DNA of 63,417 nt, counting the filler. It is 5 parts of 5 records of this genome, joined end to end, with 100 filler letters (N's around TTAATTAATTAA, not from the genome) between each part and the next. Parts side by side here need not be neighbours in the genome. Positions count along the whole stretch, not along the records: positions 21,698 to 36,735 come from SRR2962707_501; 4 more parts are not named here. The stretch is one strand, 5' to 3'. This document shows positions 25,755 through 36,735 of this stretch, piece by piece (position 1 is the first letter of the stretch; every line of letters starts with the position of its first letter). The notes under the pieces were generated by a model. That model searched no databases. It had not been told where the DNA came from and was given only the letters and a program-made list of their open reading frames with translations. The position numbers and the translations under genes were made by a program.

Positions 25755-26795
25755 TCAACCATAAGCACATGTGCTGTCGCGTTGAATGAGGGTTGGCTGC
25801 ACCAGAAGACTGGAAACAGACCCCTGGATCTGCTCATCCTCGATGGATCCAATGAGCTGCTCAGCTGCCTTCCGCCCTAACAGGTCGACATGCTGTGTAA
25901 TCACCGAAATTGCGGGCCGTACCATCGCCGTCCAGTTCGCGTCGTCATAGGCCACAAGCGAAATGTCGCCTGGAACCTCGGCACCAAAATCCTGTAAGGC
26001 GATATAGAGCGACTGCGCCACCACGCTGTTGGCAGCGAAGATAGCGGTAATCCCGCGTTCACGAAGGCGCGGCACGATGGCAGCCAGGGCTTCTGCGATC
26101 GTTGTGTCTCCATCTTCCAACTTGATGCACAGTTCTTTTGCCGGCTCGAGACCAAAGCTAGCAAATGCATCTTGCCAGCCAGCAATTCGGGCCTGACCCG
26201 TTGTCCACCGGTCATGGTCGATCATCACGGCGATGTTGCGGTGACCGAGCGCTAGAAGATGCTCTGTCGCAATCTTCCCGCCGATCCGGTTATCGCCACC
26301 GATCAGCGAGTATTTTGAGCTGACAGATCTGTCGATTTGCAGGGCTGGAATGCCGTAACCCTTGACCCGGTCCAGTGCGCCCTGTGCTACGGGCGTGAGC
26401 GCGATGCCAGCCACCCCCATGGCCAGCAGCGAATCTACCGCGTCGCGTTCCTTCATGCGATCGGCACCGTCGATGATCAGAATGACTTCATACCCCCGCC
26501 GTCGCGCGACCTCCTGAAACCCGGTCGCAAGCTGGGCATAGAACGGATCCAGGAGACTCGACACGATCAGGCCAACCTGTGTGCTGGACCCGCGGCGCAA
26601 ATTGCGGGCTGCGAAATCGGGCACATACCCCATTCTCTCAGCCGCTTCGAGTACGCGTGCCTTGACCTCGGCGGCGACGTAGCCCTTACTCGACAGCGCG
26701 CGAGACACAGTAGAGCTGGAAAGCCCCAACTCCCGCGAAATATCGCCAATCCGCACACGCTTGTCTGACAACCCGGCCCTCGACTCCAGTGTCAT
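25755..26795 (-). CDS. LacI-family transcriptional regulator
   Basis: IGDISRELGLSSSTVSRAL HTH, MGYVP.FAARNL hinge, VPGDISLVAYDD. Confidence 0.95.
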   Translation of the reverse strand: MTLESRAGLSDKRVRIGDISRELGLSSSTVSRALSSKGYVAAEVKARVLEAAERMGYVPDFAARNLRRGSSTQVGLIVSSLLDPFYAQLATGFQEVARRRGYEVILIIDGADRMKERDAVDSLLAMGVAGIALTPVAQGALDRVKGYGIPALQIDRSVSSKYSLIGGDNRIGGKIATEHLLALGHRNIAVMIDHDRWTTGQARIAGWQDAFASFGLEPAKELCIKLEDGDTTIAEALAAIVPRLRERGITAIFAANSVVAQSLYIALQDFGAEVPGDISLVAYDDANWTAMVRPAISVITQHVDLLGRKAAEQLIGSIEDEQIQGSVSSLLVQPTLIQRDSTCAYG

Positions 26796-27676
26796 TCCCC
26801 GGAATGCCTGCGTATTAGCGTGTCGATGGCGAATAGACTAGTACACTCGGCCTCCGTGGTACCTGTGCCCAGCGTTCTGGAGAAGCTATTGAGTTGCACC
26901 CTCTTTCCGCGCTGCATCAGGAGTAACTTGGCAGACGCAGGGTAGTTCTTTTCCAGCGCTGCATCAGCAGCAGTCATCAGAAGAGAAAGCGAATCCTCAG
27001 ATTCGGTTGCCGCGCGCCCCAACAGACCGGGATAGATAGTTGCCATCAGACCGCAAAAGCCATCCGCACCGGCGGCTAAGGAGGCCCGGAACGAGGCCAT
27101 CTCTGCGTTGAGAAGCTGCAACCGCGTACCGGCGGTGAGCTGCGCCCGCCGCGTGATGCGGGCCAGATCGAGACAAGTGTCTTTGTAAAATGTGAAGCGG
27201 CCGGACTGCGCTGCAAGTGCAACGCAAGAATCGGACAGCAGGCGCTTGAAAGGACGTGGTGCCTCGTAAAGCCCAAGATCGCCCGTGGTGTCGGCGACAA
27301 CCCGCTCTAGTGCGCGCAAAACTGCTGTTTCCGGAGCATTTTCCTCAGCAAAATGGGCCGTCAACAGGACGGCAAGATCGGCCCCTGCTGCATGGGCCTG
27401 GGAAATTACCCGAACAAAATCTGTTGTGTCACCAGGATAAACCGCCGCAGCGATGGGGATTCGTCCATTGACCGTTGTCGCACAGGCGCTCACGATCGAT
27501 AGCCTTTCGGCCTCGGACAGTGTGAACGGTTCGCCGGAAAGGCCGGCCACCAGAACACCGCTGGCTCCCATGTCGATATTGAACTCGACCAAGCGGCTCA
27601 GCGCTGGAAAATCGATCTGGCCGTCAGGCTCGAACGGGGTAAGGAGCGGTGGCCAGATTTCGGGGGCACGCGCCAT
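26792..27676 (-). CDS. DHDPS/NAL-family class I aldolase
   Basis: LTPF..DGQIDF, AGLSGE, GLYEAP, FYKDT (Schiff-base Lys). Confidence 0.85.
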   Translation of the reverse strand: MARAPEIWPPLLTPFEPDGQIDFPALSRLVEFNIDMGASGVLVAGLSGEPFTLSEAERLSIVSACATTVNGRIPIAAAVYPGDTTDFVRVISQAHAAGADLAVLLTAHFAEENAPETAVLRALERVVADTTGDLGLYEAPRPFKRLLSDSCVALAAQSGRFTFYKDTCLDLARITRRAQLTAGTRLQLLNAEMASFRASLAAGADGFCGLMATIYPGLLGRAATESEDSLSLLMTAADAALEKNYPASAKLLLMQRGKRVQLNSFSRTLGTGTTEAECTSLFAIDTLIRRHSGE

Positions 27677-27678
27677 GC

Positions 27679-35023: not shown

Positions 35024-36448
35024 ATGAGCAAGCGACCCAATATCCTGTTTCTGCTTTCAGACCAGCACGCATTCCGCGCTCTTGGTGATGTTCCCGGGAG
35101 CCCTGTGCAAACACCCAATTTGCTGAGATTGGCAGCGGAAGGTGTCCGGTTCGACAATGCCTATTGTCAGAGCCCGCTATGCGTGCCCAGCCGGGCCTGC
35201 CTGTTGACTGGCAAACACGCGCGCACAACTGGAATTTACGATAATCAAGACATATTGCCCGCCAATAGTCCTACCTTGGCGCGCAGCTTTTCCGAGGGCG
35301 GCTATCGTACTGCGCTGATCGGGAAGTCTCATTTCAATGGCGAACAATTCCACGGTTTCCAGCAGCGTCCCTATGGTGATTTCTATGGGCAGGCCCATCA
35401 ACCCGATCCTTGCCGTCATGCCAATGAAAGCGGACTGGGCGACATCCTGCAGGATGCAGGCCCATCGGGCATCCCACTCCCCATGACCCAAACGGAAATT
35501 TGCGTGGCCGAGGCGACAAAATGGCTGCAGGAACGGGCGGCCGACTTGAGTGCACCGTTCTTTCTTGCTGTTCAGTTTGACAAACCACATTTCCCGATCA
35601 ATCCCCCCGCCGGATTCTACGAACGGTTTGCGGGAAAGATCGACCTGCCAGTTTTTGATAGGAATTGGATGGAAGCCGCCCCCGCTTTTGTGCGAACAGC
35701 GTGGTCCAACAGCGGCACCGCCCAGCACAGTGCTGACGCAGAAGCGAACCTGCGGGCGCTGGCCGCCTACTTTGGCTGTGTCGAGTGGGTAGACGACGCG
35801 GTCGGGCGCTTGCTCGCGGTGCTCGATTATCTCGATCTGAGCCGCGACACGATCGTGATCTACGCCTCCGATCACGGCGAAATGGCGGCCCAGCGCGGCA
35901 TGTGGCAAAAGACCGTTTTCTATGAGGACAGCGCCCGTGTGCCACTCATCCTACGCTGGCCGGATCGGGCCAAGCCAGGCCTGCGCAGTAATGCTGCTGT
36001 CGGTTTGATCGATCTCTACCCAACACTATGCGCAGCCGCCGGTGTCTCCTGTCCGGGCGCGCTTGAGGGAATCGACATCTCCCCCGCGCTAAGTGACGAA
36101 CCACTCCCTCCTCGCGACCTTTTCTGTGAGAGCGTGGTCCTCAAGCAGCCCGAACATGCTGGATGCATGGTGCGCCGGGACCGCTGGAAATATGTGCTTT
36201 ATCTTGATGGAGCCGAAGAGCTGTACGACCTCAGCGTCGATCCGGATGAATGGCATGATTTGTCCAAGGACCCGGTCACCGAAGCTTTGCGCGGCGACTT
36301 GCGCTCGACTGTGCGTCAGTTTTGGCAACCAGACGCATTTGCTCAGCGCTATGCTGCCACGCCTCGGATGCCGCGCGAGAAGCACTTCTATCCCTATTCC
36401 AATCAATTCCTGACCGGTGACGGCAGGGTTTTTGATGCGCGTCCCTGA
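35024..36448 (+). CDS. Formylglycine-type sulfatase (choline-sulfatase-like), cytoplasmic
   Basis: [16 protein letters not shown] (CxPxR), GKSH, SDHGE, WQK, ELYDL..DP.E. Confidence 0.92.
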
Positions 36449-36474
36449 GACGTCTAGACCAGAAGGAAAAAACG

Positions 36475-36735
36475 ATGGCGGGCCTAACGCTCAAGAACGT
36501 GCGCAAAAGCTATGGTACGGTTGAAATCATCAAGGGTATCGATCTGGAGGTGAAGGACGGCGAATTCGTCGTGTTCGTCGGCCCCTCAGGGTGTGGCAAG
36601 TCCACATTGCTGCGCATGATTGCGGGGCTGGAAGAAATCTCGGATGGCGAATTACGGATAGGCGACACCCTGTGCAACGACATCCCTGCCAAGGCCCGCG
36701 GCATTGCCATGGTGTTTCAGTCCTATGCGCTCTAT
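36475..36735 (+). CDS. MalK/UgpC-type ABC ATPase, N-terminal fragment
   Basis: [11 protein letters not shown]alker [10 protein letters not shown]; truncated by the spacer. Confidence 0.95.

Follow-up and report, generated by a model that had tools for sequence, protein, structure and literature searches.

What reaction does an isomerase of the GmhA family perform when its gene lies in a sugar-uptake locus, between a kinase gene and an alpha-mannosidase gene? To our knowledge, GmhA has been described solely as the enzyme that opens heptose biosynthesis and as a target for antibiotic adjuvants. The question arises from a gene cluster in the window, by which we mean the whole 63,417-base stretch of DNA analysed here. 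The window consists of five contigs placed end to end, and its eight N runs are four N44-TTAATTAATTAA-N44 linkers. Gene neighbourhood across these linker points is artificial because the contigs are separate. The cluster lies on a single contig of 15,038 bases (21698-36735). One strand encodes a ROK-family sugar kinase, an isomerase with SIS domains, an alpha-mannosidase of glycoside hydrolase family 38 (GH38), an enzyme of the dihydrodipicolinate synthase/N-acetylneuraminate lyase (DHDPS/NAL) superfamily and a LacI-family repressor. The other strand encodes an ATP-binding cassette (ABC) sugar importer and a sulfatase. The locus is an island-borne variant of a widespread mannoside module, and its isomerase belongs to a distinct catabolic branch of GmhA.

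A GmhA branch tied to a kinase and an alpha-mannosidase

We searched for loci that encode relatives of the SIS protein. Among the best 80, a GH38 gene adjoins the SIS gene in 25, nearly always in the order ROK-SIS-GH38 behind LacI and an ABC transporter. Two further loci break off at the SIS gene and have ROK upstream of it, and the SIS gene stands alone in the remaining 53. The converse search returned no loci with the single GH38 protein as the query; an alignment of 13 GH38 orthologues gave 80 further loci, a few of which are shared with the earlier set. Among the 69 of these with at least 2 kb upstream, ROK and SIS genes lie directly upstream of GH38 in 39, a SIS gene only in 2, a ROK gene only in 2, and neither in 26. 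The hosts of this trio are mainly Actinomycetota and Chloroflexota. Nearly the whole cluster is found in Psychromarinibacter halotolerans and three Martelella genomes, where nine of the ten genes and the window's portion of the ATPase gene follow in the same order (SIS identity to the window protein, 78% and 57-58%, respectively). In a fourth Martelella locus (L185), the sequence starts within the sulfatase gene, leaving the ATPase out of view, and a Ruaniaceae actinobacterium has all the cluster genes except the sulfatase. Thus, the conserved core is ROK-SIS-GH38, and the gene arrangement is not due to chance. In the open-access literature, judged by the titles, opening lines of abstracts and term counts of the papers listed, we found no paper on the trio or on loci combining GmhA/phosphoheptose isomerase with GH38 or another mannosidase.

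The SIS protein carries the GmhA signatures GNGGS (48-52), H58, E62, N91-D92, T118-S119-G120-S121-S122, Q169 and H177. Its solved relatives are all GmhAs at first (C. jejuni 1TK9, 8e-38, down to 3TRJ), followed by DiaA. With known GmhAs (E. coli b0222; 1TK9, 2I22, 1X92, 2X3Y) it shares the SIS_2 fold family, a length of about 190 aa, E-values of 8e-38 to 6e-31 to the solved members, and identical Glu/Gln/His and binding-loop residues. It differs from them in scoring below both NCBIfam cut-offs (TIGR00441, 151.2 versus 209.45 bits; NF010546, 152.7 versus 276), in belonging to a separate clade tied to GH38 and ROK that has six substitutions of its own, and in lying in a catabolic operon in host genomes without a heptose-nucleotide pathway. 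The SIS orthologues in five other genomes score 139-176 bits, and none of the five exceeds the GmhA cut-off.

Comparing column by column 29 members of the GH38-linked clade with 54 other GmhAs, we found N52-S55, H61, E65, R69, N93, D94, T120, S121, S124, N126, Q172, E173, H175 and H180 (E. coli numbering) to be invariant in both sets. The window protein keeps the catalytic E62, Q169 and H177, the zinc-ligand H58 and the phosphate loop T118-S122, all of them invariant across the 29 and the 54 sequences. According to the available part of PMC4697000, the E-Q-H triad is necessary for GmhA activity, and the Glu is replaced in DiaA-like non-catalytic proteins. Since all the known catalytic and binding residues are invariant in the 29 clade members and the 54 others, the SIS protein is predicted to be a competent GmhA-type aldose-ketose isomerase. 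The DiaA model is missed (NF008138, 103.5 versus 352 bits) and the catalytic Glu is kept, so the protein is not a DiaA. We also rejected a NagS-type dehydratase, NagS being a member of the MurQ branch. In Saccharopolyspora, gmhA genes are linked to hydrogenase genes, a context unrelated to that of GH38 and ROK.

A tree of 45 SIS sequences with E. coli DiaA as the outgroup places 28 GH38-linked proteins and the ABC-linked protein of L035 on one side of a branch with support 99/96. This clade falls with the HldE- and GmhB-linked GmhAs and not with DiaA, and it is separate within the GmhA tree. The window protein groups with Psychromarinibacter (100/90), then Martelella (97/90), then Ruaniaceae (99/96), and this group is nested in an otherwise actinobacterial clade. 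Because of this nesting, together with the integrase described below, the cluster was most probably transferred from Actinomycetota into marine Alphaproteobacteria.

Relatives of the SIS protein that are not linked to GH38 show 45-53% identity to the window protein, about the same as the actinobacterial GH38-linked ones. Their surroundings are biosynthetic. One of them adjoins HldE (L024), two (L025, L049) are flanked by GmhB and HldE and accompanied by a GT9 heptosyltransferase, and two adjoin other glycosyltransferases (L056, L085). Two from Myxococcota adjoin CMP-sugar-type genes: at L061:9383-10516 and L068:8086-9633 the neighbours are a GFO oxidoreductase, a CTP_transf_3 cytidylyltransferase and an SDR protein, and in L061 a HAD-type region precedes in-frame. 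This context looks like a CMP-sugar pathway rather than one for ADP-heptose. A second GmhA-like lineage, 28-36% identical to the window protein and with an insert of about 25 residues past the catalytic Glu helix, occurs near ROK, GH38 and GH2 genes in metagenome-assembled genomes (MAGs) of Chloroflexota and Clostridiales (L161, L168, L171, L177).

Could the SIS gene be an ordinary biosynthetic gmhA that sits in a sugar operon by chance? Automatic annotation would say so, as it names all the relatives D-sedoheptulose-7-phosphate isomerase. The host genomes argue otherwise. The cluster SIS protein is the only strong GmhA match in four of the five host genomes tested, and the fifth, Micromonospora, has a second GmhA copy adjoining an HldE-like gene and a GT4 gene. 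An HldE kinase domain above the family cut-off was found in none of the five. The island carried the gene into a genus without GmhA, as none of three island-free Devosia genomes has one (best SIS match, 30 bits). At the locus itself, the nucleotide-heptose partner genes are absent, the GDP-heptose kinase HddA not being among the genes searched. Moreover, the slot between ROK and GH38 is conserved across phyla, and the clade is separate from the biosynthetic ones. We reject chance placement of a biosynthetic gene as scarcely tenable.

A preliminary description of this DNA, made from its letters, had noted the GmhA signatures listed above in the SIS protein, had regarded its setting as non-biosynthetic, and had made recurrence of the gene combination in other genomes a test of the cluster. 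The residue comparison, the phylogeny, the host genomes and the 39 trio loci among 69 agree with it on each of these points.

Substrate of the kinase-isomerase pair

We give about an even chance to a LacI-controlled pathway for alpha-mannosides in which ROK would make mannose-6-phosphate and the GmhA-like enzyme would convert it to fructose-6-phosphate, the substrate in the present locus probably being a sulfated marine manno-oligosaccharide. In the pathway that we infer, the ABC importer would take up a small manno-oligosaccharide, in the marine variant probably a sulfated one. The substrate would arrive unphosphorylated because uptake is by an ABC transporter and not by a phosphotransferase system (PTS). 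A cytoplasmic Cys-type sulfatase would strip the sulfate, the cytoplasmic GH38 would free mannose, and the ROK kinase would phosphorylate it to mannose-6-phosphate. The GmhA-clade protein would then act as a non-orthologous phosphomannose isomerase (PMI), and the DHDPS-like enzyme would handle something else released from the marine substrate, the simplest candidate being a 2-keto-3-deoxy or ulosonic acid. The conversion of mannose-6-phosphate to fructose-6-phosphate is the C6 homologue of the manno-aldose/ketose reaction that GmhA performs on C7. The SIS protein has SIS_2/SIS domains only and lacks the cupin-fold PMI domains (type I ManA, TIGR00218; type II, PF01050); it may work like a PMI, and it is not a member of a PMI family.

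The glycosidases of these loci point to mannose. The nearest solved structures of the GH38 protein (831 aa) are Ams1 and 7UFS-type alpha-mannosidases (E 2e-62 to 8e-47), to which it aligns only from about residue 280 onward of the Ams1 and 7UFS chains. The residues H18, D20, D130 and H332-D333 of its HxD, NxDPFGH and FHD motifs are invariant in the 13 orthologues; we take these motifs to provide the metal ligands and the nucleophile. It is not an MngB (NF007331, 112.5 versus a cut-off of 1138 bits). Downstream sequence of at least 4 kb is available for 37 trio loci, 14 of which also have a GH2 gene there, and GH1 genes are frequent in trio loci. The best solved relatives of the GH2 protein are beta-mannosidases (5N6U, 4e-74; 6BYE; 2VJX). 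In the available parts of PMC10154615 and PMC6160142, GH38 and GH2 beta-mannosidase form a known enzyme pair for the N-glycan core, and the former source describes Ams1- and B. longum-type GH38 enzymes as trimming free high-mannose glycans.

The ROK kinase has its motifs intact (DIGATK for DxGxT, NDAAAG for N-D, GELGH for ExGH, and CKCGLSGCVE for the CxCGxxGCxE zinc motif), and Pfam finds no DNA-binding helix-turn-helix (HTH) domain in it. Its best solved relatives are the glucokinases 3VOV and 3VGK. It scores below every equivalog cut-off, and the N-acetylmannosamine kinase models score nearly as well as the glucokinase models.

Known systems provide parallels to most of this gene set. In Bacillus subtilis, gmuE/gmuF form a kinase and cupin-type PMI pair in a mannan/mannoside operon. 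There, as here, a glycosidase, a ROK kinase and an isomerase leading to fructose-6-phosphate would share one regulated operon; the cupin-type PMI of that operon is replaced here by a SIS/GmhA-type protein in the same slot. The mannosylglycerate system of E. coli likewise uses a cytoplasmic GH38, MngB, on a small mannoside. It differs in its uptake by a PTS instead of an ABC transporter and in its glycerate kinase, which has no counterpart here, in addition to the missed MngB equivalog. Further parallels are the cytoplasmic N-glycan/alpha-mannoside loci of Gram-positive bacteria, namely GH38/GH5_18 of Cutibacterium acnes, the GH38 operon of Bifidobacterium longum, and GH38/GH125 with ROK of Streptococcus pneumoniae. 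As far as the excerpts of PMC6160142 and PMC10154615 go, these share ABC oligosaccharide import, a cytoplasmic GH38, ROK and a local repressor, and a GmhA-type isomerase is not described in them. A beta-mannosidase partner, present in many relatives of the cluster, is a further likeness. The present cluster differs by its extra cytoplasmic sulfatase, its DHDPS-like enzyme and its transporter, with permeases just 24-32% identical to the actinobacterial ones.

As for regulation, we found by eye and by pattern search two 14-nt TGnnAACGnTTnCA sites, copies of TGAYAACGATTGCA, in the region between the divergent operons. They resemble the consensus form of LacI-family sites, the palindrome-like TGnnAnCGnTnnCA. 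An inverted-repeat finder reported no palindrome in this region. We read the two sites as candidate LacI operators, and the locus as probably LacI-repressed, because a motif of the same form occurs in the same intergenic region of Psychromarinibacter (two sites) and of Martelella (one site each); the loci compared were L001-L004, L100, L184-L187 and L191.

Several observations weigh against the mannose pathway. By homology alone, the default substrate of the SIS protein would be sedoheptulose-7-phosphate/heptose-7-phosphate, as the protein is about 50% identical to HldE-adjacent GmhAs. No change relative to the other GmhAs was seen among the known substrate-contacting residues of the clade. 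The six clade-specific changes (C50 to F, P75 to R, I118 to F, T143 to L, E187 to D and M190 to A, E. coli numbering) flank the active-site loops from outside; two of the six are missing from the window protein itself. The residues would thus fit a C7 as well as a C6 phosphosugar, and sequence cannot separate the two. A PMI is also not missing from the hosts. Type I ManA scores above the cut-off in three of five genomes and in 33 of 34 genomes, all actinobacterial. A monofunctional type I PMI was found in none of six alphaproteobacterial genomes (Psychromarinibacter, two Martelella and three Devosia), and a type II PMI/GMP domain was present in all five of those scanned for it, the sixth (G039) lying outside that scan. 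With classical PMIs in nearly every host, the actinobacterial ones show no obvious PMI gap for the SIS gene to fill, and the outcome for the mannose pathway is neutral to slightly negative. There is also no evidence of slot swapping, since a classical PMI occupies the isomerase slot in none of the 80 GH38 loci; the queries for this count were two actinobacterial type I ManA proteins, which could miss other PMI types. The operator pattern is not significant by itself (2 found in the window versus 0.73 expected, with at least 2 in 15 of 100 shuffles). Finally, a pure mannose pathway leaves the DHDPS-like step unexplained.

A second explanation, which the preliminary description had put in the lead, is the scavenging of heptosides. 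Here, GH38 would cleave alpha-D-glycero-D-manno-heptosides, ROK would phosphorylate O7, and the SIS protein would run the GmhA reaction in reverse, sending sedoheptulose-7-phosphate into the pentose phosphate pathway. By all sequence criteria save the trusted score, the SIS protein is a full GmhA, and its identity of about 50% to HldE-linked GmhAs suits this role. It is the sole GmhA in hosts unable to make nucleotide-heptose, and for this reason a reverse, catabolic direction would be logical. Moreover, ROK and SIS are gained and lost together, and in actinobacterial hosts that already own ManA, a dedicated kinase and isomerase suit a sugar beyond the reach of the housekeeping enzymes. The company that the SIS gene keeps speaks against it. 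The partner hydrolases are mannose enzymes (Ams1-type GH38 and GH2 beta-mannosidase), plus GH1, and a version of the locus in Granulosicoccus has no kinase. Two enzymes, GH38 and ROK, would have to change specificity here versus one for mannose. The trio is very widespread in soil Actinomycetota and Chloroflexota, whereas free D,D-heptosides are rare in nature. In lipopolysaccharide (LPS), the common heptose has the L,D configuration, whose use would call for an epimerase, and none was found in the loci scanned. We therefore regard heptoside scavenging as rather doubtful. What stands of the earlier interpretation is a recurrent, non-biosynthetic catabolic unit with an isomerase of the GmhA family; heptose as its leading substrate gives way to mannose because of the mannosidase company.

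Both explanations thus carry objections, and a third leaves the locus a mannoside locus in which the SIS protein acts on another phosphosugar made by ROK or senses a sugar phosphate non-catalytically. A precedent for a changed role is NagS, which is annotated as phosphoheptose isomerase-like and is a GlcNAc-6-phosphate dehydratase; however, the same source, as far as available (PMC12680351), places NagS in the MurQ branch and not in GmhA. The full E-Q-H set and the zinc ligands are kept in our protein, which favours a GmhA-type aldose-ketose isomerisation, and non-catalytic DiaA-like proteins replace the Glu in the portion of PMC4697000 at hand. We consider such another role unlikely.

DHDPS-like enzyme, sulfatase and the marine loci

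The DHDPS-like protein keeps the Schiff-base K165 (in a YKDT motif) and Y137, and it is probably a pyruvate-dependent class I aldolase. It falls far short of the models for DapA (71.4 versus 206 bits), NanA (40-48 versus 281-382) and KdgD (49 versus 374). Its solved relatives include N-acetylneuraminate lyases (E 1e-12 to 1e-10), and a Protein Atlas search with it returned generic DHDPS clusters only. The subfamily is rare: eight loci were found, in Psychromarinibacter, four Martelella, Halovulum, Ruaniaceae and Granulosicoccus, and in all eight the gene directly follows this GH38. We take these taxa to be marine or saline in habitat.

The sulfatase carries the sequence C-V-P-S-R, a case of the C/S-x-P-x-R motif, lacks a signal peptide, and begins directly with the catalytic domain. 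Because of the motif and this start, we assign it as a cytoplasmic Cys-type formylglycine sulfatase. Such a canonical C-x-P-x-R enzyme does not fit the generic stripper of substituents for which this sulfatase-fold protein had tentatively been taken earlier. Among solved structures, it comes nearest to the sulfatases 9S8Y and 7EBP, choline sulfatase and GlcNAc-6-sulfatase, and it misses the choline-sulfatase equivalog (269.8 versus 433.45 bits).

The genes for the DHDPS-like enzyme and the sulfatase are accessory, occurring in a small marine group of loci. The locus of Granulosicoccus sp. (L190:1-9935) has the transporter, the sulfatase, GH38, the DHDPS-like gene and LacI, with neither ROK nor SIS. 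Because this locus lacks both and keeps the rest, ROK and SIS behave as one separable, dispensable two-step module, and the aldolase and the sulfatase go with the marine substrate. These two added enzymes point to a sulfated marine mannoside; that it is a sulfated manno-oligosaccharide from algae is no more than a fair guess. A sulfatase homologue (35% identical) also follows GH38-GH2-GH1 in two MAGs of Gaiellaceae and Thermoleophilia (L148:16390 on and L157:10810 on). Since both are trio loci of actinobacteria, the use of sulfated substrates may extend beyond the marine variant.

What the aldolase might split invites a further alternative for the marine variant, in which mannose would come from two branches. 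The cleavage of KDN, the deaminated sialic acid, gives mannose, so a KDN-type lyase would yield pyruvate and mannose alongside the mannose freed by GH38, and both would pass through ROK and SIS. The active-site Lys and Tyr of the NAL/DHDPS superfamily, the N-acetylneuraminate lyases among the solved relatives, the ROK scores with N-acetylmannosamine kinase models and the strict tie of the DHDPS-like gene to this GH38 all suit such a lyase. However, its scores lie far under the NanA cut-offs, the locus has no sialidase/KDNase and no ulosonate transporter, and Granulosicoccus keeps the gene without the kinase and the isomerase that would use the mannose. We hold a KDN-lyase branch, which draws on gene context and general chemistry, to be very unlikely. 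A Kdo role for the DHDPS-like gene is not favoured either, because D-arabinose from Kdo has no follow-up enzyme in the locus; the elaboration of heptose scavenging to Kdo and the LPS core, likewise part of the preliminary description, finds no support.

Genomic island, gene layout and significance

The cluster is the cargo of a strain-specific genomic island at a tRNA-Ser gene in a Devosia. Using the metallo-beta-lactamase-fold protein encoded beside the tRNA as the query, we searched for the empty site and obtained 80 loci, nearly all from Devosia; the protein is 100% identical in the Devosia locus L192 and 93% identical in D. indica. The L192 contig matches the window at 99.66% identity over 2067 nt, from 21698 to 23763, and the identity stops at 23763, 17 nt beyond the tRNA-Ser. 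Beyond the tRNA, L192 has no integrase and no cluster gene, and nowhere else does it match the window. The tRNA-Ser, the adjacent integrase and the empty site in a near-identical Devosia contig together establish the island, which the earlier reading of the DNA had presumed. Known tRNA-linked integrase islands have the same make-up (a tRNA gene with a tyrosine integrase beside it, cargo, and a near-identical genome in which the site is empty); the difference is that here only the left end is seen, the far end lying beyond the contig. No second copy of the tRNA 3' end (att repeat) occurs within the window, and the island is not distinguishable from its surroundings by base composition.

The side of this tRNA-Ser is an integration hotspot. 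Integrase homologues occur at the same site in six of the 80 Devosia-type loci, none of which has a GH38 or SIS gene. These homologues (L195, L199, L206, L217, L238, L264; about 8000-9750) are 33-65% identical, lie on the tRNA-Ser side and come with other cargo.

We called genes by open reading frame (ORF) listing combined with Pfam and NCBIfam scans (Table 1). All the genes named in the preliminary description are present where it had put them, the gene content and layout are those of the divergent, LacI-type-regulated catabolic unit that it proposed, and gmhB, hldE, hldD and glycosyltransferase genes, reported there as missing from the visible cluster, are absent from the whole cluster contig in these scans. 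The SIS ORF is open from 30966, and its true start is the ATG at 30750, 5 nt past the ROK stop and behind a GGGAG site. The ORF of the substrate-binding protein (SBP) is open from the TTG at 31868; the likely start is the GTG at 31922, behind a GAGGGAGG site. Solved relatives of the SBP are distant only (trehalose/maltose-binding protein, 4e-19). The contig ends at 36735, where the ATPase gene is cut after 87 codons; Psychromarinibacter has a full-length ATPase gene at the corresponding place.

Table 1. Features of the cluster contig and linkers of the window (positions count along the whole window)
Feature	Position	Strand	Evidence or remark
rpmA (ribosomal protein L27), 5' part, cut by contig start	21698..21772	-	Pfam Ribosomal_L27 1.9e-07; chromosomal backbone
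rplU (ribosomal protein L21)	21782..22438	-	Pfam Ribosomal_L21p 1.2e-35; backbone
Metallo-beta-lactamase-fold hydrolase	22677..23570	-	Pfam Lactamase_B_3 1.3e-18; backbone
tRNA-Ser (anticodon CGA), island integration site	23657..23746	+	ARAGORN
Tyrosine integrase (DUF6538 + Phage_integrase), first island gene	23797..25476	+	Pfam
LacI-family repressor, last gene of the minus-strand operon	25755..26795	-	Pfam LacI HTH + Peripla_BP_3; below all NCBIfam equivalog cut-offs
DHDPS/NAL-superfamily enzyme	26792..27676	-	Pfam DHDPS 2.1e-23
GH38 alpha-mannosidase, cytoplasmic, 831 aa	27679..30174	-	Pfam GH38 N, middle and C domains 5e-58, 9e-20, 3e-30
GmhA-clade SIS isomerase, 190 aa	30178..30750	-	SIS_2/SIS domains; TIGR00441
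ROK-family sugar kinase without HTH, first gene of the minus-strand operon	30755..31759	-	Pfam ROK 3.8e-55, residues 22-315
Candidate LacI operator 1 (TGACAACGATTGCA)	31745..31758	.	Overlaps the ROK start codon
Candidate LacI operator 2 (TGATAACGATTGCA)	31887..31900	.	Just upstream of the SBP start
Periplasmic SBP of CUT1-type sugar ABC importer	31922..33268	+	Pfam SBP_bac_1; signal-peptide-like N-terminus
ABC permease 1	33272..34186	+	Pfam BPD_transp_1
ABC permease 2	34179..35018	+	Pfam BPD_transp_1
Formylglycine-type (S1) sulfatase, cytoplasmic	35024..36448	+	Pfam Sulfatase 1.9e-49
MalK/UgpC-type ABC ATPase, N-terminal 87 codons	36475..36735	+	NCBIfam MalK 8.7e-40, residues 1-88
Linkers N44-TTAATTAATTAA-N44	21598-21697, 36736-36835, 45710-45809, 57310-57409

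The other contigs are not linked to the cluster. A gene for a GT2-GtrA fusion and then one for a PMT_2 (ArnT-like) glycosyltransferase lie at 37153-39816; these glycosyltransferase genes from 37153 onward are uninformative for the cluster because they are on another contig. Cobalamin biosynthesis genes at 17728-21457 include a CbiG-methylase fusion (601 aa) and a methylase-methyltransferase fusion (407 aa). The last contig (57410-63417) has a G+C content of about 40%, against about 60% in the other four, and may be foreign DNA or that of another organism.

In summary, a well-supported GmhA branch is encoded in a catabolic operon, its gene lying between those of a kinase and an alpha-mannosidase; the hosts span dozens of genera, most of which do not synthesise heptose. 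Should the enzyme prove a true GmhA working in reverse, the loci would encode a heptose-recycling pathway, none of which we found in the open-access texts searched: heptose catabolism, utilization or degradation and heptosidases went without mention there. That the trio is the first heptose catabolic pathway, with GH38 as a "heptosidase", in bacteria unable to make heptose is a tentative prospect on the doubtful side; in that case, mobile islands would have spread it from Actinomycetota to marine Proteobacteria. If, instead, the SIS protein is a phosphomannose isomerase, it would define a new, non-cupin class of this enzyme, and in Actinomycetota and Chloroflexota the name "sedoheptulose-7-phosphate isomerase" would be a wrong annotation in thousands of cases. 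For the Devosia strain, the island represents the transfer of a complete, regulated module for glycan use.

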